The notes below the pieces were generated by a model. The model was not told the DNA's origin and made no database searches. It was given only the letters and a program-made list of their open reading frames with translations. Positions 6,764 through 17,057 of a stretch of 64,000 nucleotides of DNA are shown here, piece after piece. Both the position numbers and the translations under genes were made by a program. Position 1 is the first letter of the stretch; the number at the start of each line of letters is the position of its first letter. Where the stretch lies: NCBI GenBank assembly GCA_965216755.1, contig CBDCGL010000011.1:416001-480000 (forward strand). Direction: 5' to 3'. Origin of the DNA: Alphaproteobacteria bacterium. GTDB taxonomy: Bacteria > Pseudomonadota > Alphaproteobacteria > UBA7887.

Positions 6764-6838
6764 GGGCCCGTAGTTCAGTGGTAGAACACGTGACTTTTAA
6801 TCACGGTGTCGGAGGTTCGATTCCTCCCGGGCCTACCA
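6764..6838 (+). tRNA. tRNA-Lys (anticodon UUU)
   Basis: Acceptor GGGCCCG/CGGGCCT, D-arm GTTC-AGTGGTA-GAAC, anticodon arm CGTGA-CTTTTAA-TCACG, T-loop GGTTCGATTCC, encoded A-CCA end. Confidence 0.97.
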
Positions 6839-6847
6839 AGTCGACCG

Positions 6848-8144
6848 GGTCCAGCCCGGAGACATAGGTAACAGTTTGTACCTAGGACATGGGTGACAAC
6901 CACGCGCCGAACGGGTTGTCGAGGGGTTGCAGGGTTCTCTGTTCAAGATCGACGTAACCGAGATCATAGTGCATGAAGCTGACGAGCCAAATGGCGTCGT
7001 CAACTTCCTTGATGCCGAGCCTTTGCCCCGCGAGCACGGTTGAGACATTGATTTTTTTGCGGTGCAAGCAGATGCGGCCGCAATTGGTAACCAGGATGTC
7101 GCGATCGTGAAAGGGGTAGGCGAGCTCTGGGACGCCGGTATAGGGCCGGGTTGAGGGTTTGTAGACCTCGTCTGGTGGTTTCATGTCCAGGGCCTGGTGG
7201 GGTCGTTCCGTGTTGAATTCGTCAACGAAGGCATCGAAGCGTGCTTGCTGCTGCAGGCTGTTCATGCCGGGCGGCCGTGTGGCTTCCTTTTTCAAAGTAA
7301 GGTGGAGGCGCTCGTGTCGGCCATTTTCTTGGGGATGGCCTGGTTTGATGCGCTCGATCTGAATGCCGAGGCGTAGCCACCAGACGGAGAGCTTGGAGAG
7401 ATTGAACAAGCCGTTGGGGCTGGCGAAGGGTACGCCATTGTCCGATCTGATGGCGGCGGGCAGGCCACGTTCAGCAAACAGGCGTTCGAAGGCGGTGAGA
7501 GTGAGATCTTGCTTTGTCGACTCGAGAGCTTCGCACATCAGGACGAAGCGCGAGGCATGGTCGGTAACGGTCAAGGGGTAACAATACCGCCGGTTGCCGA
7601 GTCTGAACTCGCCTTTGAAGTCGGTGCACCACAAATCATTGGGTGCGGTGCCAGCGGACAGGGGTGTGCCTTTGGCTCTTCGGCGGGGCCGGCCTTTGCG
7701 TTTGACCAGGCCGTGCCGGTCGAGGACGGCATGAACGGTACTTTGGGCTGGGATGCGGACATCCCCGGCCAGGCGGCGGACGAGCAGCTCACGGATCTTG
7801 CGTGCGCCCCAATGGGGTTTCTCCTTTTTGAAGCGGATGATCAGGCTTTCGACCTGTGCCGGCAATTGGTTGGCATAGCGAACCGGCCGGCGGGAGCGGT
7901 CGCAGAGGGCTTCGAGCCCGTGCTCCTTGTAGCGATTGTAGATTTTGTAGCCTGTCTTGCGCGAGATACCGAACTGACGGCAGACATCGCTCATTGGCTC
8001 GCCCTCTAACAGGCGGGCGACAAAACGTAGACGTTCTTCCATGACCGAACTCTCTTTCCACGGCATCAACACCTCCGGCCCCACGAATTCGGCCAAAAGT
8101 GTTACCCATGTGTCCGGTACAAAACGTCACCTATCTCTCAGGTC
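6848..8144 (-). mobile_element. IS481-family element
   Basis: Imperfect ~50-bp terminal IRs containing ATAGGTAACA/ACATGGGTGACA sub-repeats; flanked by AGTCGACCG at 6839-6847 and 8145-8153. Exact ends uncertain by a few bp. Confidence 0.8.
6882..8066 (-). CDS. IS481-family transposase
   Basis: MPWKESSVMEERLRFV, HTH CRQFGISRKTGYK, DDE core WCTDFKG...IRSDNG...QENGRHER. Confidence 0.93.
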   Translation of the reverse strand: MPWKESSVMEERLRFVARLLEGEPMSDVCRQFGISRKTGYKIYNRYKEHGLEALCDRSRRPVRYANQLPAQVESLIIRFKKEKPHWGARKIRELLVRRLAGDVRIPAQSTVHAVLDRHGLVKRKGRPRRRAKGTPLSAGTAPNDLWCTDFKGEFRLGNRRYCYPLTVTDHASRFVLMCEALESTKQDLTLTAFERLFAERGLPAAIRSDNGVPFASPNGLFNLSKLSVWWLRLGIQIERIKPGHPQENGRHERLHLTLKKEATRPPGMNSLQQQARFDAFVDEFNTERPHQALDMKPPDEVYKPSTRPYTGVPELAYPFHDRDILVTNCGRICLHRKKINVSTVLAGQRLGIKEVDDAIWLVSFMHYDLGYVDLEQRTLQPLDNPFGAWLSPMS

Positions 8145-8157
8145 AGTCGACCGTGAA

Positions 8158-9501
8158 CTAAGCGAATTGGTGTGCGTTTCTGACGCAGGTGAGTGTCCAA
8201 AGTTGGAGCACAGGAAGCCTGATCCAATTCAAGATCAGGCGGAAGTTGTATCCGGCAGCAGCAAGAACTGGATTGATTGCGTCGCCCTGTTTGTGGGCGA
8301 GATAGTTTGTATTCATGGGGTGGCCGGACTTGAGATGACCGATGACGGGTTCGACGGCCGAACGTCGTTTCATCTGACGTTTGATGGCGGCTGTGACGCG
8401 GCGTTTTTGTCCGGCGGTGAAGACGCGGAACCTGTGGCTGTTGGGCGCATTGTGGCCCTTGTAGCCGGCATCGGTAAGGATACGCGTGAGCGTGACGCCG
8501 GTGAACGCTTCGATCCGGGGAATGACGGTCCCAAGGGTGTGCCCATCATAGGGCCGGCCCGACAGGGCTTGGACGTGGACAACAAACTGGCCGCCCTTTG
8601 ACCGCTTGAGGGTGGTGGCGACCGAAGCCTTGACGCCGAACTCATAAGGTTTGTGGGCTTTGCCTTTGCCAATGCACTCCACCTCCGGCGCGTGCAGGGC
8701 ATAAACCTTGGGCAACGGATCGCGTTGCTTCTGGGTCATCACCCGTGTCGCCAACCATAGGGGTCGTCGGAAGGCGTCTTCCAGATCTGGGTTGCCTTTG
8801 ATCTTGCGCCCAATGTCGCGCACCGTTCGGCCAAGATAGGTCTTCAGGCGGCGCAGCTGCTTGCGCGCCCGCTTGTGTTGTTTGGCGTGGGCATAACGCT
8901 GATAGGCAATTAGCGCCTTCTTGCCAACACGCCGATAGGATTGGCGTAACGCAATGCCTTCCGCTTTGGCTTGTTTGACCAGCCGTTCGCGGGCGCGATG
9001 GATCAGCTTGGCGTCAGTCGGAAACGCGATGTTCTTCTCGGCAACTGTTGTATCGATAATCACTTTCGTAAATTCGCGAGGCGTCGCTGCGCCGATGTCC
9101 ACAGCCACCGAAAGGCTTTCCTGCAACAAAGCCTGAAGCCGCTCCTCACCCATGCGTTGCCGCCAACGTGTCATCGAAGAGCGATCCAGCGGTAGTTCAT
9201 GACGGAAGAATTCTTCGCCACAAAAATATTGATAATACGGGTTCTCCACCCAGCGCCGGCAAAGCTCTTCATCCGACAGGTTGTCGGCATATTTCAAGAT
9301 GTGGAGACCGGCCATCAACCGCGTTGAAAGCGGCGGGTAACCCGGACCGTCGATGTAAACCGCGCCGCACTGATCGGCCAAAAACTGCCAATCAATCGTG
9401 TCCGCCAAAACCACCTTCTCGTGGCCCATGTCCAAGATTTGATCCAGCCGCGCCCGAAAAAAATCGCTCTGCCCCGTGGTCTCTGGCTCTCTTGGTTTCA
9501 T
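8158..9501 (-). CDS. IS5-family transposase (DUF772 + DDE)
   Basis: DFFRARLDQIL, WVENPYYQYFCGE, IDTTV, ECIGKGKAHKPYEFGVK, DAGYKG, RRSAVEPVIGHLK. Confidence 0.93.
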   Translation of the reverse strand: MKPREPETTGQSDFFRARLDQILDMGHEKVVLADTIDWQFLADQCGAVYIDGPGYPPLSTRLMAGLHILKYADNLSDEELCRRWVENPYYQYFCGEEFFRHELPLDRSSMTRWRQRMGEERLQALLQESLSVAVDIGAATPREFTKVIIDTTVAEKNIAFPTDAKLIHRARERLVKQAKAEGIALRQSYRRVGKKALIAYQRYAHAKQHKRARKQLRRLKTYLGRTVRDIGRKIKGNPDLEDAFRRPLWLATRVMTQKQRDPLPKVYALHAPEVECIGKGKAHKPYEFGVKASVATTLKRSKGGQFVVHVQALSGRPYDGHTLGTVIPRIEAFTGVTLTRILTDAGYKGHNAPNSHRFRVFTAGQKRRVTAAIKRQMKRRSAVEPVIGHLKSGHPMNTNYLAHKQGDAINPVLAAAGYNFRLILNWIRLPVLQLWTLTCVRNAHQFA

Positions 9502-9661
9502 CGTGCCCTCATCGCCATTTGGCACAATGAATCACAGCTCAACCGCCAACGCAAATTGCAAGAAATCGGTCTTCATACACCCAAAATCCTGCAAGTCTGA
9601 CTATTGTCGCAGCGCTTACTTCGTCTCTAATTCAGACCGTTACAGATACTTCACGGACGAC

Positions 9662-9733
9662 TACCAATGAAAACAATGACTTATGGGACGATGTGGGTGG
9701 GGCGTTAGCCCCGCTGGTCGCATACTGGTCGCA
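9662..9733 (+). repeat. att-like scar of an integrative element: continuation of the tRNA end plus tandem 9-bp direct repeats
   Basis: TACCAATGAAAACAATGACTTA follows the duplicated tRNA end; CTGGTCGCA at 9714-9722 and 9725-9733 (11-bp period) resembles integrase arm sites. Confidence 0.5.
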
Positions 9734-9742
9734 AAATTTTTT

Positions 9743-10355
9743 TCACTCTTCTGGCGGGCAGGGTGCGATATCGATTTTTCCCCGTGAATAGGGCCACAGC
9801 ACTTCACAGAGCTTTTCGATCCTCTTGGCGGCCTTTGCTCCTTCTTCTATAAACCAACGGTCAGCACGGTCATCGCGCTGGCGATGTCCCTCGGCGGTTG
9901 CTCCAAGCCACTGTAATTTCTCTATTAGTTGGGAAATAGTCTCAGCGGTTTCTTGATCCGCATACTCAACACATTCTCTGAACACGCCGATAGCCTCAGG
10001 GGAAAATGGCCGCAGCCGAGATTTAAGATCATGGAACGCACCAAAGGCCTCTAAAGCGGCGTCTGTGTAGTCCGTGGTCTGGTCCATCGCAAGCGGCATC
10101 AACGCTCGAGCTGCTCGATTTTTCGCGCGCCGGATATTTTTTGAAATGCGTTGCTCGCTGGTGAATTTGGCATATTAGGACGATGATCGTAATGATCGCG
10201 GCGAAAAGGGCCAGAATGCCCGCAACTAGCGTCTGGTAGCTGTAGAAGCACTGCCACGAGAGCAACGATTCGCAAACCCACTCAACGGACTCTGGGGCTG
10301 CGTCAGCGGTTTTGACGAGTCCCGCGGAAGATGCTGAGGAATCAACCATCATCAC
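9743..10355 (-). pseudogene. Single-TM hypothetical protein split by a 1-nt frameshift
   Basis: Frame 1 YQTLVAGILALFAAIITIIVL (TM) joins frame 2 KNIRRAKNRAARALMPLAMDQ if one base is removed from the A6 run at 10137-10142. Confidence 0.6.
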
Positions 10356-10558
10356 TTATCCCTCCATCGACTCACCCTCGGGTCGTCGTCCGGCAACAGC
10401 TGACTCAACCGCAACGCCTTAACTGCGGCGTTAGCCAGGGACATGAAGTTCCTGTCTCGATACTCCGGATTCTTCTCGCGGGCCAGCGCGCGGATAAGCT
10501 GGCCCTTTCGCTTCAGGGCCGTTGATATCGCTAAGGCGATGTCCTCGTCATAGGTCAT
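10352..10558 (-). CDS. Small hypothetical protein (68 aa), paralog A
   Basis: MTYDEDIALAISTALKRK...; 33/59 identity by hand with 11443-11622; its stop overlaps the next gene start. Confidence 0.75.
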   Translation of the reverse strand: MTYDEDIALAISTALKRKGQLIRALAREKNPEYRDRNFMSLANAAVKALRLSQLLPDDDPRVSRWRDK

Positions 10559-10577
10559 GGCGGCAATCATAATACGA

Positions 10578-10592
10578 GAACAAAACGAGTAC
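10578..10592 (-). promoter_or_regulatory. Alphaproteobacterial LexA (SOS) box
   Basis: GAAC-AAAACGA-GTAC (GAAC-N7-GTAC) about 20 bp upstream of the paralog A ATG, next to a TATGAT -10-like hexamer on the minus strand. Confidence 0.65.
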
Positions 10593-10605
10593 AAACGTTA
10601 CAACT

Positions 10606-11349
10606 TCATGGTGCTGTTTGGAGCCTTGCAGCGTCCACCTGATAGAGAAGCTCATCGATAAAACCGCAGATTTTAAGAGCCCGCGTTCGCGATAGATCCG
10701 ATAAATGGTGGTGAACCGGATTTCGGTACGACTGCATTATTCCTCGGATCGAATTGGCCAATCCCGCTTGTATGCTCGGATCCGTATCCAGAACTAGAAT
10801 CGATTTTTTGGGGTCGGACTTAATAACCCGATTGACAAGGTCTGCGCCGGCCACGTTCCGATCTTGAAACGCCGACTTCCGCCGGATTCGGTCTTCAAGT
10901 ACTACTGTTGCTTCGCGGACCGCTCGGTCAAATTTATCAGGGGCGGAAAGCAGATCCGAACACCTTTCTCGCATATCGGGGTCAGTCAAAGCATTATACA
11001 AAGCACCAATCCGCGCGACTGACTCTCCTGCAAAATGCACTTTTTCTAGATACGACAAAAGCTGCGATAGCTTTGCTCTGAGTTCGTTCGCAACCGTATC
11101 CGTCGTTCGCCGGTCGCGATCCCTGTAGAATCCGTTTTCGTCCAATCTGAACGTGCCCGTATCTTCGCCAAGCACGTCGGCGAGTTTCCCTACAATCTCG
11201 TTGTAGTCGGTGCCAAGTGATAGCGGCACTAGATGAAGTGACACAATTAGCGCATCGCGAATCCCAGTCAGTCTTGCGTAAAGACCGGATAGTAATTTCC
11301 TGTCAATTGTCGAATGGTTGTCGACTGCAGCATCGGCATCGGTAACCAC
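10606..11349 (-). CDS. TIGR02391 / Ymh-family (HEPN-like) protein
   Basis: C-terminal FDRAVREATVVLEDRIR...GADLV...GIMQSYRNPVHH, which has an RxxxxH motif; unrecognised N-terminal domain. Confidence 0.75.
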   Translation of the reverse strand: MVTDADAAVDNHSTIDRKLLSGLYARLTGIRDALIVSLHLVPLSLGTDYNEIVGKLADVLGEDTGTFRLDENGFYRDRDRRTTDTVANELRAKLSQLLSYLEKVHFAGESVARIGALYNALTDPDMRERCSDLLSAPDKFDRAVREATVVLEDRIRRKSAFQDRNVAGADLVNRVIKSDPKKSILVLDTDPSIQAGLANSIRGIMQSYRNPVHHHLSDLSRTRALKICGFIDELLYQVDAARLQTAP

Positions 11350-11442
11350 GGCAGCCCCCGGATGGCGTCTGATTTCTCGCTACTAGGTGGTTATAACAAG
11401 AAGGCTCATCAAACAAACATGTCGCGGCAAGAATTCCGCTTT

Positions 11443-11622
11443 TCAACAATCGTCAGGCGGCAGACTACTCTCACGCAAAGATTGAGCAACCACCTCGGCC
11501 AGGAACTTGAAGCTGCGGTCCCGATGCTCCGGCGTCTTCTGCCGAACGAGCGCGCGCATGGATTTGGATTGACGCTTCAACGTGGTCGATATGGCCAGAA
11601 TAAGGCTCTCGTCGTAGGTCAT
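11443..11622 (-). CDS. Small hypothetical protein (59 aa), paralog B
   Basis: MTYDESLILAISTTLKRQ...PEHRDRSF...PDDC; clear paralog of 10352-10558. Confidence 0.7.
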   Translation of the reverse strand: MTYDESLILAISTTLKRQSKSMRALVRQKTPEHRDRSFKFLAEVVAQSLRESSLPPDDC

Positions 11623-11641
11623 GGCGAGTACCGTAGTATGA

Positions 11642-11656
11642 GCACAAAAAGAGAAC
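11642..11656 (-). promoter_or_regulatory. Alphaproteobacterial LexA (SOS) box, one mismatch
   Basis: Minus strand GTTC-TCTTTTT-GTGC, at the same distance from the paralog B ATG as the first box is from paralog A. Confidence 0.55.
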
Positions 11657-11681
11657 AAAGTCTGCGAGGACTTTGCTGAAA

Positions 11682-13418
11682 TTACTGATAGGGTAGCCGC
11701 CAAATGTGACAAGCATGCTTAGCCATTTCCTGCTGGCGACGTTCAATTGCCTCCGCGTTCCAGGTTGGCAAATCTAGCAAGGAGCGATTGATCGCCAGGT
11801 CCCCAAGGCGATAGGCTTGCTCTTTCTTCTCTAAAAACGAGGAATTCTGGATTTTCTTGTTTAGCTTACCCGTGAGCAAAGTCATGTTTCCTAAGCGATA
11901 CAAATACTGCTCTGCCTCGTCGCGCTCAAAAACGGTAAGCCATTCGCTAGAGATGCTCTTAGGTAAGATGTGCTCCAAAGTCAGACCTTCCCTCGCCACA
12001 ACATCGCTTGACGATAAGTGGTCATTAATCTTCTTCAAAATATGTCTAGCCAATAACTTGTCTTTATCCATGAATTCTTTCTTCGAAAATTCTCGAATGA
12101 AATCATCATCGCTTGGATAAAGGCCCTTTACACGTGCAAACACTTCGGAAGCCGTGCACCTTTGGTTTTGCCGCACATATCGAGCTGCGTCGCTGAAAAC
12201 CTTTTCTAGGTTACCTGTACGTGCGCGCCCAATAACGCTAAAACGGAATGTAAATACATTTACCATCCTATATATTCTTGCAAATATCGAAGGGTTTGTC
12301 TCAATAACAGCTAACAATAAGGGGTATATCTGAGTAACACGGCCATAAAATTTCATGTCCTTTATCGCTGTGTGTATTATTATCCTATCATCTTTCTCAA
12401 ACAAAAAATTCCACACATCGCTTTCAGTGCTTCTAAATGCACCATAATATTCTGCCGCATCCTTTAATTCCCTAGTGAAACCTCTAACAGAATTGCTATC
12501 TTCATATTCTCTTGTTGCAACTCTATACAGTTCTTTATCACGGACGACCCCTTTTTTAGATAGCCAATAATGTCGTATAAATGTTCTTATGGGGGTTTGA
12601 TTTAGGAAAGCTGCCATAGTGTCCCAGTCGTCTTGCACATAACCAAGGACATCGTCGTTTGATTTGGAAAAGATGTAGTTTTTCAAGAGATCGGCAGTGG
12701 ATAGTTCCAAGCCGCGATCGTTAAGCGTCTCGAATAAAAGGTATGCATCGTAGTTGTCCTTCACAGAAATCTCTATTATATACATGTGTTTGTCTATCGC
12801 GGTGACAATTTTCTGCACAAAATCATCGATGCGCCTGCCGCACTCTTTCTCTTTCTTTATTTGTTTTGTCATCTCATCGAAGAAATATAGGTAAGCGGAA
12901 GCTAATAGTTTGTTTGATCGAAGTGTCTTCCTGCGGCGAGAAGAAATGGTCCGAAGTTCTTCTACGTTTTCCAATGAAAATCCACCGAGCGGCGATAGAA
13001 TCTTATCTTGATAGAATTGTTTGTCGTTCTTGTTTAATTCAATTCTTGACTGCGTGACACGAGTTGAATAATCATAACGTCCTAGAAAATCGTTGGCCAA
13101 TCGTCCGGCGTTGTCTCCTTCATCAGCCGCTTTCAATAGGTCTCGCAAGGCGCAGAGCAAAAGGCAGATCGTTGTTAGCCTTTGTTGACCATCAACAACT
13201 TCCAAGAGAGGCGGATTAGCTGTTTTAATTACCATTGAACCCAAGAAATACTCAGGCGTCTGGTCAGCTAATATTGTGTCTAGGAGATCATACCAAAAGC
13301 GACCGTATTCGTCGTCGGTCCAGGAATAGTCGCGCTGAAAACGTGGAATCTTATAGGTCACTGACCTTCTAAGCATATCTCCGACGCTGCGAGTCGACGA
13401 TTCGATGTTTGCGGGCAT
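11682..13418 (-). CDS. DUF262 + DUF1524 GmrSD-like (type IV restriction-like) endonuclease
   Basis: IPRFQRDYSW, VVDGQQRLTT, FETLNDRG (DUF262); LEHILP...LGNMTLL...N (DUF1524 HNH-like); visibly AT-rich. Confidence 0.9.
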   Translation of the reverse strand: MPANIESSTRSVGDMLRRSVTYKIPRFQRDYSWTDDEYGRFWYDLLDTILADQTPEYFLGSMVIKTANPPLLEVVDGQQRLTTICLLLCALRDLLKAADEGDNAGRLANDFLGRYDYSTRVTQSRIELNKNDKQFYQDKILSPLGGFSLENVEELRTISSRRRKTLRSNKLLASAYLYFFDEMTKQIKKEKECGRRIDDFVQKIVTAIDKHMYIIEISVKDNYDAYLLFETLNDRGLELSTADLLKNYIFSKSNDDVLGYVQDDWDTMAAFLNQTPIRTFIRHYWLSKKGVVRDKELYRVATREYEDSNSVRGFTRELKDAAEYYGAFRSTESDVWNFLFEKDDRIIIHTAIKDMKFYGRVTQIYPLLLAVIETNPSIFARIYRMVNVFTFRFSVIGRARTGNLEKVFSDAARYVRQNQRCTASEVFARVKGLYPSDDDFIREFSKKEFMDKDKLLARHILKKINDHLSSSDVVAREGLTLEHILPKSISSEWLTVFERDEAEQYLYRLGNMTLLTGKLNKKIQNSSFLEKKEQAYRLGDLAINRSLLDLPTWNAEAIERRQQEMAKHACHIWRLPYQ

Positions 13419-13544
13419 TTTGGTACCTAGCGCTTGCGGATACCTCTTTGAGAAAACTATGATATAGCACGCCATGCAAAAAATAGCACTTATTCAGTAT
13501 CAGTGCCTTTACACATATTAGGACAGTCCGCACACACAGAATAA

Positions 13545-13806
13545 TCAGACGTTGATTCCCAACAATCGGGCCAAACACCGGTGCCGAGCCATGAACGCTT
13601 CCAGAGCTTGCGAATAGTTCGCAACGACGATTGTAACCGGATGCGGCTCCGGCAGATCGCCCGAAGTTTCTTTGACCCATGGGCGTAACGGCCCCCTCAA
13701 GTCACGCCGCTCGGTCGCCAGCGCCATGGCATCGGCGTGTTTGATCTCCGGTTGTTGCGGCCACGTGCAGCCGAAAGCTTCGGCGAGAGCCGCCTCGATC
13801 CGAACT
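13545..13806 (-). pseudogene. 3' remnant of a phage YfdR-like HD-domain phosphohydrolase
   Basis: Frame reads VRIEAALAEAFGCTWPQQPEIKHADAMALATERRDL; KHAD...LATERRDL is typical of the YfdR C-terminus; the N-terminal HD half is missing. Confidence 0.65.
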
Positions 13807-14205
13807 AAAACAGGTTTCAGGTGTGATGACCTTCAGGCCGACCAACGAATGGGATCGAGCCTTCGATTTTGCGGCGCCGCGCAAGCCCGGTTTTTCCTGT
13901 TGGGGCCTCAGGGGCATCGTCGGCACCTCGCACAACCAAATCGTATGACAGTTCAGGCGGTTTGCGCGGATCAATTGCGGCGAGGTTTAGTTGCTCCTGG
14001 GTGAGGCCGAGAGGTGACCGTGATCGGGAACTGATCGCGCATGTTACGGCGTGCGGCAGGGGGATCAACGGTGCGGATCTGGGCGACAAAGCCCTCGGGC
14101 CGATTGGAGCGCAGTTTATAGCGTTGTCCAGGTAGGACGAATTGCCAAAACTGTCGATACGTATCAGAGTTGTTGTAATCAAAAGAGTGTCTTCAAGAGG
14201 GTCCC

Positions 14206-15225
14206 ATGCGTCTCACGCTCCCGGCATTTCTGTTGGCGGCAATCCATATCACCACGGGGTACGCAAATAGTACTGGTATCCAGACCAATGTTGCTGGCCC
14301 GGACCCCACGGAAAGGCCCAGCGTGACCGTGTCGCAAATAGTTCGAGACGATCCGGGCGCGGCGAGGGGCCATGCGGACCTACCGTCTTTTCTCAAATCG
14401 TCGAAAGCCCCCCATGCGCTTGAACAGAGCGCAGAGTGTCGCCATCGCCCGGCCTACGAGACTGCGCTGATGCAAAATGTTCTCGAAAACTTCGACCGGA
14501 CCGAAACGCTTCGGCTAACCGGTCCCGAGTGGGATAACACGCTAGTGCGTAATTGCAGGATCCACGATACGGCTGAGGATGGGGTGATCATCAAGAACGT
14601 CAGAAATGTCGTTGTCACGAATTGCGAAATTTGGAATACGGGCGGCGAGGGCATCAAAACAAGCTCGAGCGGAAGTACTGAGAATGTGACGCTCGACGGA
14701 AACTACATTCACGACACGGCTTCGCAAGGTATCCATGCCCCGCAACGATCGGCTGAAGGCATCGATCACAGAAATCTGAGAATATTGAATAACGTGATAG
14801 AGAATACTGGATCACATGCAATTTATGTCCAGTCGCAAGACTTCATGATAGCGAACAACACGATCCGTGGCTGGCGGAAGGGTAACGGCGTGACCGTACG
14901 CAGTTCAGGTACGATCAAATGTAATGCTATATCGGGCGCTTCGCTCAATGATAAGCCAGCCATACGTTACTATTCAGATCATCAGTCGGGACTCTCAAAC
15001 GCATTGGTGATCGAGCGGAATGAGATTACCAGCGATACAATCGGCATCGATTTATACCCGCCCAGACAACGGTATGATGGCCAAGCTCCGACGGACCACG
15101 TGGTCAAGAACTTCATCGTAAGATACAATAGGGTCACGGCTATCAAGCCGCTAAGAATACATTCCGACTACGATCAACGAGAATTCTCAATTCGCATGTA
15201 CGACAACTGGCTTATGGCGAAGTAA
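14206..15225 (+). CDS. Secreted right-handed parallel beta-helix protein (pectin-lyase-like fold)
   Basis: Signal-like N-terminus; repeats NCRIHDT.EDG, NCEIWNTG.EGI, GNYIHDT.SQGI, NNVIENTG. Confidence 0.8.
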   Translation: MRLTLPAFLLAAIHITTGYANSTGIQTNVAGPDPTERPSVTVSQIVRDDPGAARGHADLPSFLKSSKAPHALEQSAECRHRPAYETALMQNVLENFDRTETLRLTGPEWDNTLVRNCRIHDTAEDGVIIKNVRNVVVTNCEIWNTGGEGIKTSSSGSTENVTLDGNYIHDTASQGIHAPQRSAEGIDHRNLRILNNVIENTGSHAIYVQSQDFMIANNTIRGWRKGNGVTVRSSGTIKCNAISGASLNDKPAIRYYSDHQSGLSNALVIERNEITSDTIGIDLYPPRQRYDGQAPTDHVVKNFIVRYNRVTAIKPLRIHSDYDQREFSIRMYDNWLMAK

Positions 15226-15232
15226 ATTCACG

Positions 15233-16726
15233 TTAGGGGCGCAATACAGCTGTCGAAGAGCGGAAAACCGATACAAACGCTTTCTCCGGCCCCTCGGGAA
15301 GACCAGAGATATACCACAGCAGGAGCAAGGCAAGGACATAAGTGCCGCCACCCACTATGCCACAAACCAAGAGTTGAACAAGGTTCTGAACAAGCGTGGA
15401 GTCAGACGGAATCAATAAACGTACGCCAATCACCAAAGATGCCATCATGATGAGAGCGACGCAACCGCGCAAGAAAGATGGGATGATTTCACTCGCCGAA
15501 GCGTTCACATAATATAATACGTACGCTAATGATAATAAGGTCGTGACGGCACTTGAAAATGCGACGGCCAAGGCGACACCGTATGTTGAGGCGGTGACCG
15601 CGCCGACATAAATGAGCGGCACGGCGACGGCGGCACCAATGGATTGTACCACGAGCATCGAACGCGTTTTTCCAAGGGCAAGAAAAACGGCTCCGCACGA
15701 CGCGTTACACAAATGAAATAGCGCGTACAGAACCAGAACGCGAATGAGAGGAATGGTGTCTAGCCAAGTGTTTCCAAGTACAACAATCACAAATGGACGA
15801 GCGACCAATCCTGTGAGAATCGCTATCGGCGCGCCGATACAGAAGATCAGAGAAAAGGATTGTATGAATGAGGTTTTGAGCAACTCGGGCTGATTAGCCA
15901 TTCTTGCGTAAGCCGGAAACATTGCACTGCGCAATGGTGCCGCCAACTCAGCGCCGACAAACTGCGAAATCGTTTTTGCCAGGTCATAAAAACCGAGAGC
16001 TGATGCACCGGAGAGTTTGCCGATAATAAGAGCGTCAGCCCGTTGACGAAGACTGAACACGATTCCGTGTGGGATAAGCCATTTCGAATAGTCGAAGATA
16101 TCGCGCCACGCGGCCAATGAAAATCGCGGCCTGAAGGCGTGCATGTGATAGCTCAAGGCCACGAGCAGGATGCGGGAGGTTGCATAACCGGCAATCAGTG
16201 CCCAATAGTTCTGCCAAAGTAGGGCGACCGCGACGGCGATCAAGAAACTTCCGAGCCGGCTTGCGAAATTGAGCTTGAACACTTTATCAAAAGTGAGGTC
16301 CTTGAAAAAATCAATCGCACCGACATTCTGCGTGCCTTCAATAAGGACAATCGCTGCCAGCCAATAAACAATTGCCTCGAGCTCAGGGGAGCCAAAGAAC
16401 GACGCGCAGGGGCGAGCCAGAAAGACAAGCACAAGCGCCATCAGGAGGCCGCGAAGGAACGTCAGGGTCCAGACGGTATCGTAGTGGCGGCGTTCGGCCC
16501 GCGTGTTTTGTATCAACGCGAGGTCAGGGCGTAGTCGCGACAAGGCCTCGACGAATCCCAAGATCATCATGGCCAGGGCGACGATACCGAAATCGGTGGG
16601 TGCCAACAGGCGCGCCAGAACCAGCGTGCGGACAAATCCGAGGCCTCCAACCGCCCAACGCAGAAAAACCATCCATCCCGCACCTCGGGCGATCTGCCGA
16701 CCGGTTACGGGTTGTTCGTTTGTCAT
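15233..16726 (-). CDS. wzx: PST-family polysaccharide flippase
   Basis: Many TM helices; LARLLAPTDFGIVALA, ALIQ, DALIIGKL...LGFY. Confidence 0.88.
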   Translation of the reverse strand: MTNEQPVTGRQIARGAGWMVFLRWAVGGLGFVRTLVLARLLAPTDFGIVALAMMILGFVEALSRLRPDLALIQNTRAERRHYDTVWTLTFLRGLLMALVLVFLARPCASFFGSPELEAIVYWLAAIVLIEGTQNVGAIDFFKDLTFDKVFKLNFASRLGSFLIAVAVALLWQNYWALIAGYATSRILLVALSYHMHAFRPRFSLAAWRDIFDYSKWLIPHGIVFSLRQRADALIIGKLSGASALGFYDLAKTISQFVGAELAAPLRSAMFPAYARMANQPELLKTSFIQSFSLIFCIGAPIAILTGLVARPFVIVVLGNTWLDTIPLIRVLVLYALFHLCNASCGAVFLALGKTRSMLVVQSIGAAVAVPLIYVGAVTASTYGVALAVAFSSAVTTLLSLAYVLYYVNASASEIIPSFLRGCVALIMMASLVIGVRLLIPSDSTLVQNLVQLLVCGIVGGGTYVLALLLLWYISGLPEGPEKAFVSVFRSSTAVLRP

Positions 16727-17057
16727 GCCTAAGGTCTCGAAAATACCAACACGCGGCTAGGAAGGTGGATGAGGTATCGCACCTTGTCAAATGGAACGGC
16801 GGCCTGAAAGCGGATGAGTTGATCGAGATGGCGGGAAACACGACGCTGGGCCTATAGAAAACCCGACATAAACCGACGGGTTGTTACGGCGGGCTGCGGG
16901 CAGGTACGGTGGGGGATGGTGAATTTTCCAAGATGTTGGGCCGCCGCCGTAGATGCGCTTTTCCAACGAGATCGCACCTTCCTTGCAAAATTATGCGATA
17001 TATTGCTTTCGGCGGATTTCGAGATGCAGCAATGGCGACGTAAGATCAGTTCGCGGA

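Follow-up and report, generated by a model that had tools for sequence, protein, structure and literature searches.

Three small paralogous genes in the genome of an alphaproteobacterium of the UBA7887 lineage (assembly GCA_965216755.1) very probably encode an orphan small protein under repression by LexA, judging from the sequence upstream of each gene. Two of them, here called A and B, lie on the minus strand of the window, a stretch of 64,000 nucleotides (nt) (contig CBDCGL010000011.1, positions 416,001 to 480,000), at 10352–10558 and 11443–11622 respectively; the third, C, lies elsewhere in the genome. A and B are placed within an island of nuclease-type genes, where they probably also serve as SOS-gated internal promoters. 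For the reading as a whole, that of LexA-gated small-protein genes with read-through into island cargo, we estimate a probability of about 0.6.

In the mechanism that we favour, each small gene would have its own promoter, the -35 element and spacer of which are overlain by a LexA operator of the GTTC-N7-GTTC type. In the undamaged cell LexA would block this promoter. Upon DNA damage, RecA-stimulated cleavage of LexA would free it, and a probably leaderless mRNA would be made from the ATG. In the island, transcription from the box before B would run into a gene of the Ymh/HEPN type, and transcription from the box before A into a putative membrane-protein open reading frame (ORF) and an ORF of 119 amino acids (aa) beyond it. 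Such read-through would make foreign cargo genes damage-inducible.

A family of three paralogous small genes

A (68 aa, isoelectric point (pI) 9.9) and B (59 aa, pI 9.0) had been called paralogs in a first-pass annotation of the window, on a hand count of 33 identical residues out of 59. BLASTP bears this out, with 33 of 58 residues identical and an E value of 3e-23. A six-frame search of the genome adds the third paralog, C, at C11:4115855–4116058, 3.7 Mb away, with an identity to A of 81% in that search and 79% in the alignment. Whereas A and B lie within an island at tRNA-Lys and insertion sequence (IS) elements, C is not part of any obvious mobile element; rodA lies on one side of it and a TRAP-transporter gene on the other, and the surrounding ORFs have no family. 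A 254-aa ORF is convergent with C and overlaps its 3' end. Downstream of C on its own strand there is no gene, hence no cargo.

Judged by their substitution patterns, the small ORFs are real genes under purifying selection, because the ratio of nonsynonymous to synonymous substitution rates (dN/dS) is close to 0.18 in the sense frame (A–C 0.18, A–B 0.175, C–B 0.189) as against about 1 in the open antisense frame (1.21, 0.90 and 0.87 for the same pairs). A ratio near 1, which the first-pass annotation had named as evidence against these genes, is thus not seen in the sense frame, where it is 0.175–0.189. Synonymous sites differ at 39–69% among the pairs; between A and B they are saturated (dS about 1.8), and the DNA is about 70% identical over the best 87 nt. 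Homology between the copies is bounded on both sides. It ends after the stop codon, where 14–17 of 60 positions are identical among paralog pairs, and it starts about 36–38 nt before the ATG, with 13–20 of 62 positions identical farther upstream; both counts are what unrelated sequence would give. Opposite all three genes the codon-aligned antisense frame is open (64, 121 and 73 aa), on the plus strand at 10331–10525 and 11314–11679 in the window and at 7814–8035 in the locus of C (L004), with dN/dS of about 1.

The proteins are basic (pI 9.0–9.9) and hydrophilic. Aligned, the three paralogs have acidic termini, with MTYDE at the N terminus and PDD at the other end, and share several invariant Arg and Lys residues. 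From the three sequences AlphaFold2 predicts, at low confidence, a two-helix hairpin for A, with helices at residues 3–29 and 36–54.

The first-pass annotation did not recognise the family, and we likewise found no family match and no relative outside its own genome; in the data searched, A, B and C form a family restricted to this genome. A word-index search of 5.8 billion proteins gave two matches, both from the genome itself, and a profile search of 1.84 billion representatives gave its own two proteins only, apart from a 476-aa low-complexity repeat protein (E 7e-4) that was judged spurious. Six-frame searches with the family profile gave no match in 60 related genomes (22 of the same family and 38 of the same class), and none in the whole order, whose 22 genomes are identical to the 22 of the same family. 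In 400 genomes of the class there were four weak matches (E 0.001–0.01 per genome), roughly as many as chance would give; the best one lies antisense within a 463-aa ORF that by eye resembles a flagellar hook-associated protein. Pattern scans of genome contigs and of metagenome contigs gave no confirmed case, tblastn against phages and plasmids gave none, and the ESM Atlas held no usable match. No match at E < 0.01 was found in Pfam, NCBIfam, PADLOC or PHROGs, the last giving one weak match for A (E 0.028) and none for B or C. Foldseek, run with the low-confidence model against the PDB, had nothing at or below E 0.001, its best E value being 2.8, and Rfam gave no match at E up to 1 over 9400–13800. 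The first-pass annotation had looked to a profile search of alphaproteobacterial genomes for conserved boxes before variable defence-type cargo; no homologs turned up in any of the collections searched, so no association of box and cargo is visible across genomes.

LexA-type boxes and candidate promoters

The first-pass annotation described a GTTC-N7-GTTC-like box at a fixed distance upstream of A and B, and this is what we find: in A and B, as in C, the box ends exactly 19 nt upstream of the ATG. Box A (GTACTCGTTTTGTTC, 10578–10592, minus strand) reads GTAC...GTTC and box B (GTTCTCTTTTTGTGC, 11642–11656, minus strand) reads GTTC...GTGC, each with one mismatch to GTTC-N7-GTTC, and box C (GTTCTCTTTATGTTC), upstream of C, is a perfect match. 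To judge from the alignments, the box is the best-kept non-coding part around the small genes. The interval from -36 to -18, which contains it, has 15–16 of 19 positions identical in every paralog pair, and the interval from -17 to -1 has 8–10 of 17.

GTTC-N7-GTTC is given as the LexA motif for Alphaproteobacteria in PMC8565304. A bare match to it carries little weight: the genome has 152 perfect boxes, with about 134 expected from base composition by our own arithmetic, and one-mismatch boxes are common. Perfect boxes with a T-rich spacer stand before the genome's own lexA (C11:888982–889680, box at 888901), recA (2135541–2136503, two boxes at 2136668 and 2136597, one of them perfect) and imuA, and before a B12-dependent nrdJ and a PA0069-family radical-SAM gene. 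The five reference sites share the extended pattern T-GTTC-T..TTT-GTTC-T, and the flanking T bases of the small-gene boxes agree with that pattern as it is seen at lexA, recA, imuA and nrdJ. A position weight matrix was built from these five sites, each extended to 19 nt. Among 10,030,872 genome positions it ranks box C 11th, box A 20th (score 19.1) and box B 30th (score 18.18), and it places 31st the second recA box, which is a GTAC-N7-GTTC variant like box A. At or above the score of B (18.18) there are 29 sites in the real genome, 11 in the reversed genome and 9, 6 and 2 in block shuffles; at or above the score of C (21.6) there are 11, 1, and 1, 0 and 0, respectively.

The ranks of the extended sites of A and B, these null counts and the identity of 15–16 of 19 positions in the box interval place the boxes beyond chance. 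From their sequence, all three are very probably LexA sites, box C appearing to be the surest. The likeness to alphaproteobacterial LexA operators claimed in the first-pass annotation therefore stands, as the motif precedes the genome's own lexA, recA and imuA and all three boxes fall within the genome's top 30. Box C lies in a 78-nt spacer (L004, 8060–8137) that is shared with a divergent 132-aa ORF of no family, and this ORF could be under the same operator.

The candidate promoters of A, B and C follow the pattern TTGTnC-N17-TAnnnT. The hexamers TTGTAC, TTGTTC and TTGTTC are followed after 17 nt by TATGAT, TACGGT and TATTTT, and after a further 7 nt by the ATG; box B together with the two T bases before it gives TTGTTC, a possible -35 element. 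These hexamers are weak and do not appear in the output of a generic promoter scan. We infer that LexA would cover the -35 element and spacer of the candidate promoter, and that the transcript would start at or beside the ATG, giving a leaderless mRNA. By eye, none of the three genes has a GGAG-like Shine-Dalgarno sequence in the 19 nt upstream of its ATG.

Read-through from B into the Ymh gene, and from A into the next two ORFs, would be likely, because RNA folding and a terminator scan gave no terminator-like fold after A or B; there was none downstream of C. Immediately past the stop codon of the GmrSD gene that precedes B, a hairpin with a 9-bp stem is followed by a U-rich run (11654–11677, minus strand), and its 3' arm and U-run overlap box B. 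It folds at -9.4 kcal/mol (z -1.88), with 7 of 200 shuffles folding equally well, and is possibly a weak terminator.

Weighing the alternative explanations

The boxes resemble the alphaproteobacterial SOS box in being a direct repeat with a T-rich spacer, as before the genome's own lexA, recA and imuA, and in a position suited to repression by covering the -35 element and spacer. They differ from it in the core mismatch of two of the three, in standing before an orphan gene rather than a repair gene, and in an orientation relative to the gene that is opposite to that of four of the five reference sites. The predicted hairpin may have counterparts in Sda of Bacillus and Rop of ColE1, small helical-hairpin checkpoint or binding proteins, the former of which is linked to replication or DNA-damage stress. 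With these the small proteins share a size of about 60 aa and a predicted antiparallel two-helix hairpin, although the resemblance goes no further than the shape predicted by a low-confidence model, for which the best Foldseek E value is 2.8. For a small protein directly under LexA, the nearest functional parallel may be the antirepressors GfoA and GfhA of the Salmonella Gifsy phages, which PMC3121763 describes as small LexA-controlled prophage proteins. There, as apparently here, a small gene directly under LexA (here, a LexA-type box) lies among accessory genes of a mobile region, and there are paralogous copies within one genome, so that the protein could act in trans. Relative to the Gifsy proteins, ours differ in matching no PHROGs family at E < 0.01 and no phage in tblastn, and in that C is outside any obvious mobile element. 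No prophage was identified in the present case, and no target repressor either, although none was searched for. By analogy with such LexA-controlled antirepressors, our best guess is that the small protein is a trans-acting regulator that binds protein or nucleic acid; an antitoxin dedicated to its neighbour is less likely.

Several observations weigh against LexA control of A, B and C. Only five sites went into the matrix, which is no more than moderately specific at the scores of A and B; judged by the nulls, chance could account for up to about a third of the sites at B's score. Of the other sites between ranks 12 and 32, 15 were looked at, and the ORFs flanking the eight of these that were scanned include no known repair gene, being OmpA-like, LysR, SDR, L,D-transpeptidase, MlaC-like, or of no family. 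No good box is found in the uvrA–ssb spacer (best score 10.9), and recN lacks one. Four of the five training boxes read GAAC...GAAC on the coding strand, whereas the small-gene boxes read GTTC...GTTC. Being homologous, the three boxes do not count as three independent observations, and their first half-site may be nothing more than a -35 element. LexA binding and SOS induction of the three genes are predictions from sequence, and the structure model of the small protein is of low confidence, with a mean predicted local distance difference test score of 67 from three sequences. Among the 136 sites scoring at least 14, the layout of box, 12–29 nt and start codon occurs, besides the paralogs, only at the radical-SAM gene and at scattered ORFs, the latter probably by chance.

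Some of these observations could mean that the upstream element is a mere promoter, made of a -35 element and a T-rich spacer, or an operator through which the small protein regulates itself, its likeness to an SOS box being coincidental. We think this improbable. It is true that the first half-site with the preceding TT gives an acceptable -35 element (TTGTTC or TTGTAC), but the second half-site and the T-rich spacer fall within the promoter spacer, for which RNA polymerase has no sequence requirement, and yet 15–16 of the 19 positions from -36 to -18 are identical. A and B are each short of one core base, and chance sites at their scores exist (2–11 per genome in the nulls) and similar-scoring sites adjoin unrelated genes; against this stand the perfect box of C, with a score reached by 0–1 chance sites per genome, the flanking T bases that fit the extended pattern of lexA, recA, imuA and nrdJ, and the recurrence of A's GTAC-N7-GTTC variant as the second recA box. 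Proteins as basic as these (pI 9.0–9.9) could bind DNA, as autoregulation would require. A different account accepts the SOS control and makes the small protein an antitoxin or immunity partner of the adjacent effector, B pairing with the Ymh/HEPN protein and A with the product of the membrane ORF; in each pair the antitoxin gene would come first. LexA-controlled pairs with the antitoxin first are known, among them dinJ-yafQ, yafN-yafO and higBA of Caulobacter, and the arrangement here has, as in SOS-controlled type II toxin–antitoxin systems, a small gene first beneath a repressor box and then a possible effector. The stop codon of A overlaps the start of the membrane ORF by 4 nt (GTGA), suggesting translational coupling, and the Ymh protein keeps an intact HEPN-type R-x4-H motif. 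Unlike such systems, however, one paralog is partnerless, as C has no downstream gene on its own strand; the supposed toxins are mutually unrelated; 93 nt separate B from the Ymh gene; and the small proteins have no known antitoxin fold, nor does any antitoxin family of Pfam, NCBIfam or PADLOC match them. Relatives of the Ymh protein stand alone as well. We fetched 80 metagenome loci of such relatives (31–49% identity), kept from 271 confirmed, of which 60 had at least 350 nt upstream. A conserved small upstream gene was found in 0 of the 60, and 0 of the 1,824 ORFs in the 80 loci match the small-protein profile (best E 0.15). Among 25 chosen large ORFs upstream of the relatives, five are guaA and two carry GmrSD_N plus HNH, and the remainder include an integrase, a transposase, a type I restriction R subunit, a PD-(D/E)XK nuclease and housekeeping genes. 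Ymh genes thus normally stand alone in variable regions, which speaks against B as an obligate partner, and we regard a dedicated antitoxin as unlikely.

The repeated unit might instead be a recombination handle or cassette boundary by which defence genes are swapped, in the manner of an integron or a hotspot. A and B do form a repeat in direct orientation, 1,064 nt apart and flanking one cargo gene; they are host-like in composition with foreign genes between them, and the island adjoins tRNA-Lys and two IS elements. An identity of about 70% over the best 87 nt with dS of about 1.8 is nevertheless too low for homologous exchange, and purifying selection acts on the protein, not on the DNA alone. 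No attC-like inverted repeats flank the genes (a repeat search of 9400–14200 gave the A/B unit and short chance pairs only), no integrase is seen among the ORFs of 7,000–17,000, where the neighbours are transposases and polysaccharide genes, and the unit occurs in no other genome searched, so that swapping is not visible. Such a handle is in our view very unlikely. Still more improbable is that the small ORFs are not genes and the repeat is a non-coding element or an RNA. The opposite-strand frame is open in all three copies and there are no homologs elsewhere, but dN/dS separates the sense frame (0.18) from the antisense frame (about 1), the differences between A and C favour the third codon position (9 at position 1, 4 at position 2, 20 at position 3), homology halts at the stop codon, and Rfam gave nothing at its threshold.

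These comparisons also bear on the roles that the first-pass annotation had offered for the small protein. That it heads each cargo gene fails as a rule, because C has a perfect box and no gene after it on its strand. The antitoxin proposal is weakened by the 60 Ymh loci lacking a conserved small upstream partner, and the proposed recombination handle by the divergence of A and B and by the lack of integron-type repeats or an integrase at the site. LexA-gated genes for a small regulator, with read-through into the cargo behind A and B, remain the reading that we prefer.

The island and other LexA-type sites

The cluster comprises six ORFs (9743–13475), and its minus-strand order is that described in the first-pass annotation, with which the ORFs and their Pfam and NCBIfam domain matches agree: a GmrSD gene, B, the Ymh/HEPN gene, A, the membrane ORF and an orphan ORF. 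It sits after tRNA-Lys (6764–6838, plus strand) and two transposase genes on the minus strand, one IS481-type (6882–8096) and one DUF772/IS5-type (8158–9525), which form the island border; polysaccharide genes come next beyond the cluster.

The GmrSD-type gene (11682–13475, minus strand) encodes a type IV restriction-like nuclease of 597 aa. It carries GmrSD_N (DUF262; E 5.5e-37, 128.3 bits) and GmrSD_C (DUF1524; E 1e-29, 103.7 bits) in a single protein, as is characteristic of the GmrSD/HEC-06 family, and residues 20–594 match the PADLOC HEC-06 model at E 4.9e-165. A LexA-like site at 13024–13042 on the plus strand (rank 48, score 16.6) lies inside this gene, on the opposite strand, and is probably there by chance. 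The Ymh/TIGR02391 gene (10606–11349, minus strand; 247 aa) has a GTG start preceded by GGGGG. Its product matches Pfam Hypoth_Ymh with 56.6 bits (cut-off 25) and NCBIfam TIGR02391 with 38.2 bits, slightly below the cut-off of 39.45. Alongside this family match, the HEPN-type R-x4-H motif is present and intact, the R-N-P-x-H-H motif being invariant in 12 aligned relatives (R209, N210, H213 and H214). A scan of genome contigs found no close relatives. Among the metagenome relatives, the Ymh gene directly follows guaA (GMP synthase) in five of 25 annotated cases (L034, L043, L075, L079 and L108), which points to a hotspot for its insertion at the 3' end of guaA.

The membrane ORF behind A (10029–10355, minus strand; 108 aa) has one hydrophobic stretch, judged by eye, and is probably co-transcribed with A. 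Pfam, NCBIfam, PADLOC and PHROGs give it no family, with matches to SLATT_5 and DUF6724 under their cut-offs. The orphan ORF (9743–10102, minus strand; 119 aa) likewise has no family in these databases, its sole match being its own record. The two overlap by 74 nt in different frames, with A-rich runs nearby (9743–10355), and could be two overlapping genes or one frameshifted gene.

GC content at third codon positions (GC3) is low in the GmrSD gene (0.45, with an overall GC of 0.43) and is 0.50 in the Ymh gene and 0.59 and 0.52 in the last two ORFs, whereas B, A and C have values of 0.68, 0.75 and 0.68, against a host mean of 0.654 (standard deviation 0.042). The small genes thus look host-like in composition, placed between foreign-looking cargo genes. 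One could imagine, at rather long odds, that LexA operator, leaderless promoter and small basic hairpin protein together make up a regulatory cassette of host origin, copied by the lineage before newly acquired and potentially self-harmful defence genes, which it would silence until DNA damage; the protein would then act in trans as an antirepressor or an Sda-like checkpoint binder, tying the effectors to the SOS state. A host-made cassette predicts small genes of host-like codon composition between foreign cargo genes, as is seen.

Elsewhere in the genome, the site of rank 5 (score 26.8; C11:2777795, L013) is followed by an ORF of 117 aa and the gene of a large serine recombinase, and this locus may be an SOS-controlled integrative element. 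A perfect box, GTTC-TCTTTTT-GTTC, with the spacer of box B overlaps the beginning of an ORF of 112 aa with no family at C5:3715 (L009), on a 17.9-kb contig of lower GC. The perfect boxes at C11:3539503 and 3893069 (L014 and L019) are those before the B12-dependent ribonucleotide reductase gene and the PA0069-family radical-SAM gene. With these two genes boxed, and the uvrA–ssb spacer and recN not, the predicted SOS regulon of this lineage looks unusual.

Cases of mobile-island genes and phage-defence genes under LexA control are already familiar. The novelty here lies in a family of proteins without relatives, to which belong three of the thirty or so highest-ranking LexA-type sites of the genome, and in the repeated layout of box and small gene. 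The family is under clear purifying selection, and two of its copies lie between foreign nuclease-type genes. As the family is confined to one genome, the general reach of the finding is small unless functional analogues are found. Should the small protein prove to be a regulator or binder induced by DNA damage, a little-studied alphaproteobacterial lineage would gain a further SOS effector, and the island would offer a simple case of acquired defence genes put under host stress control.

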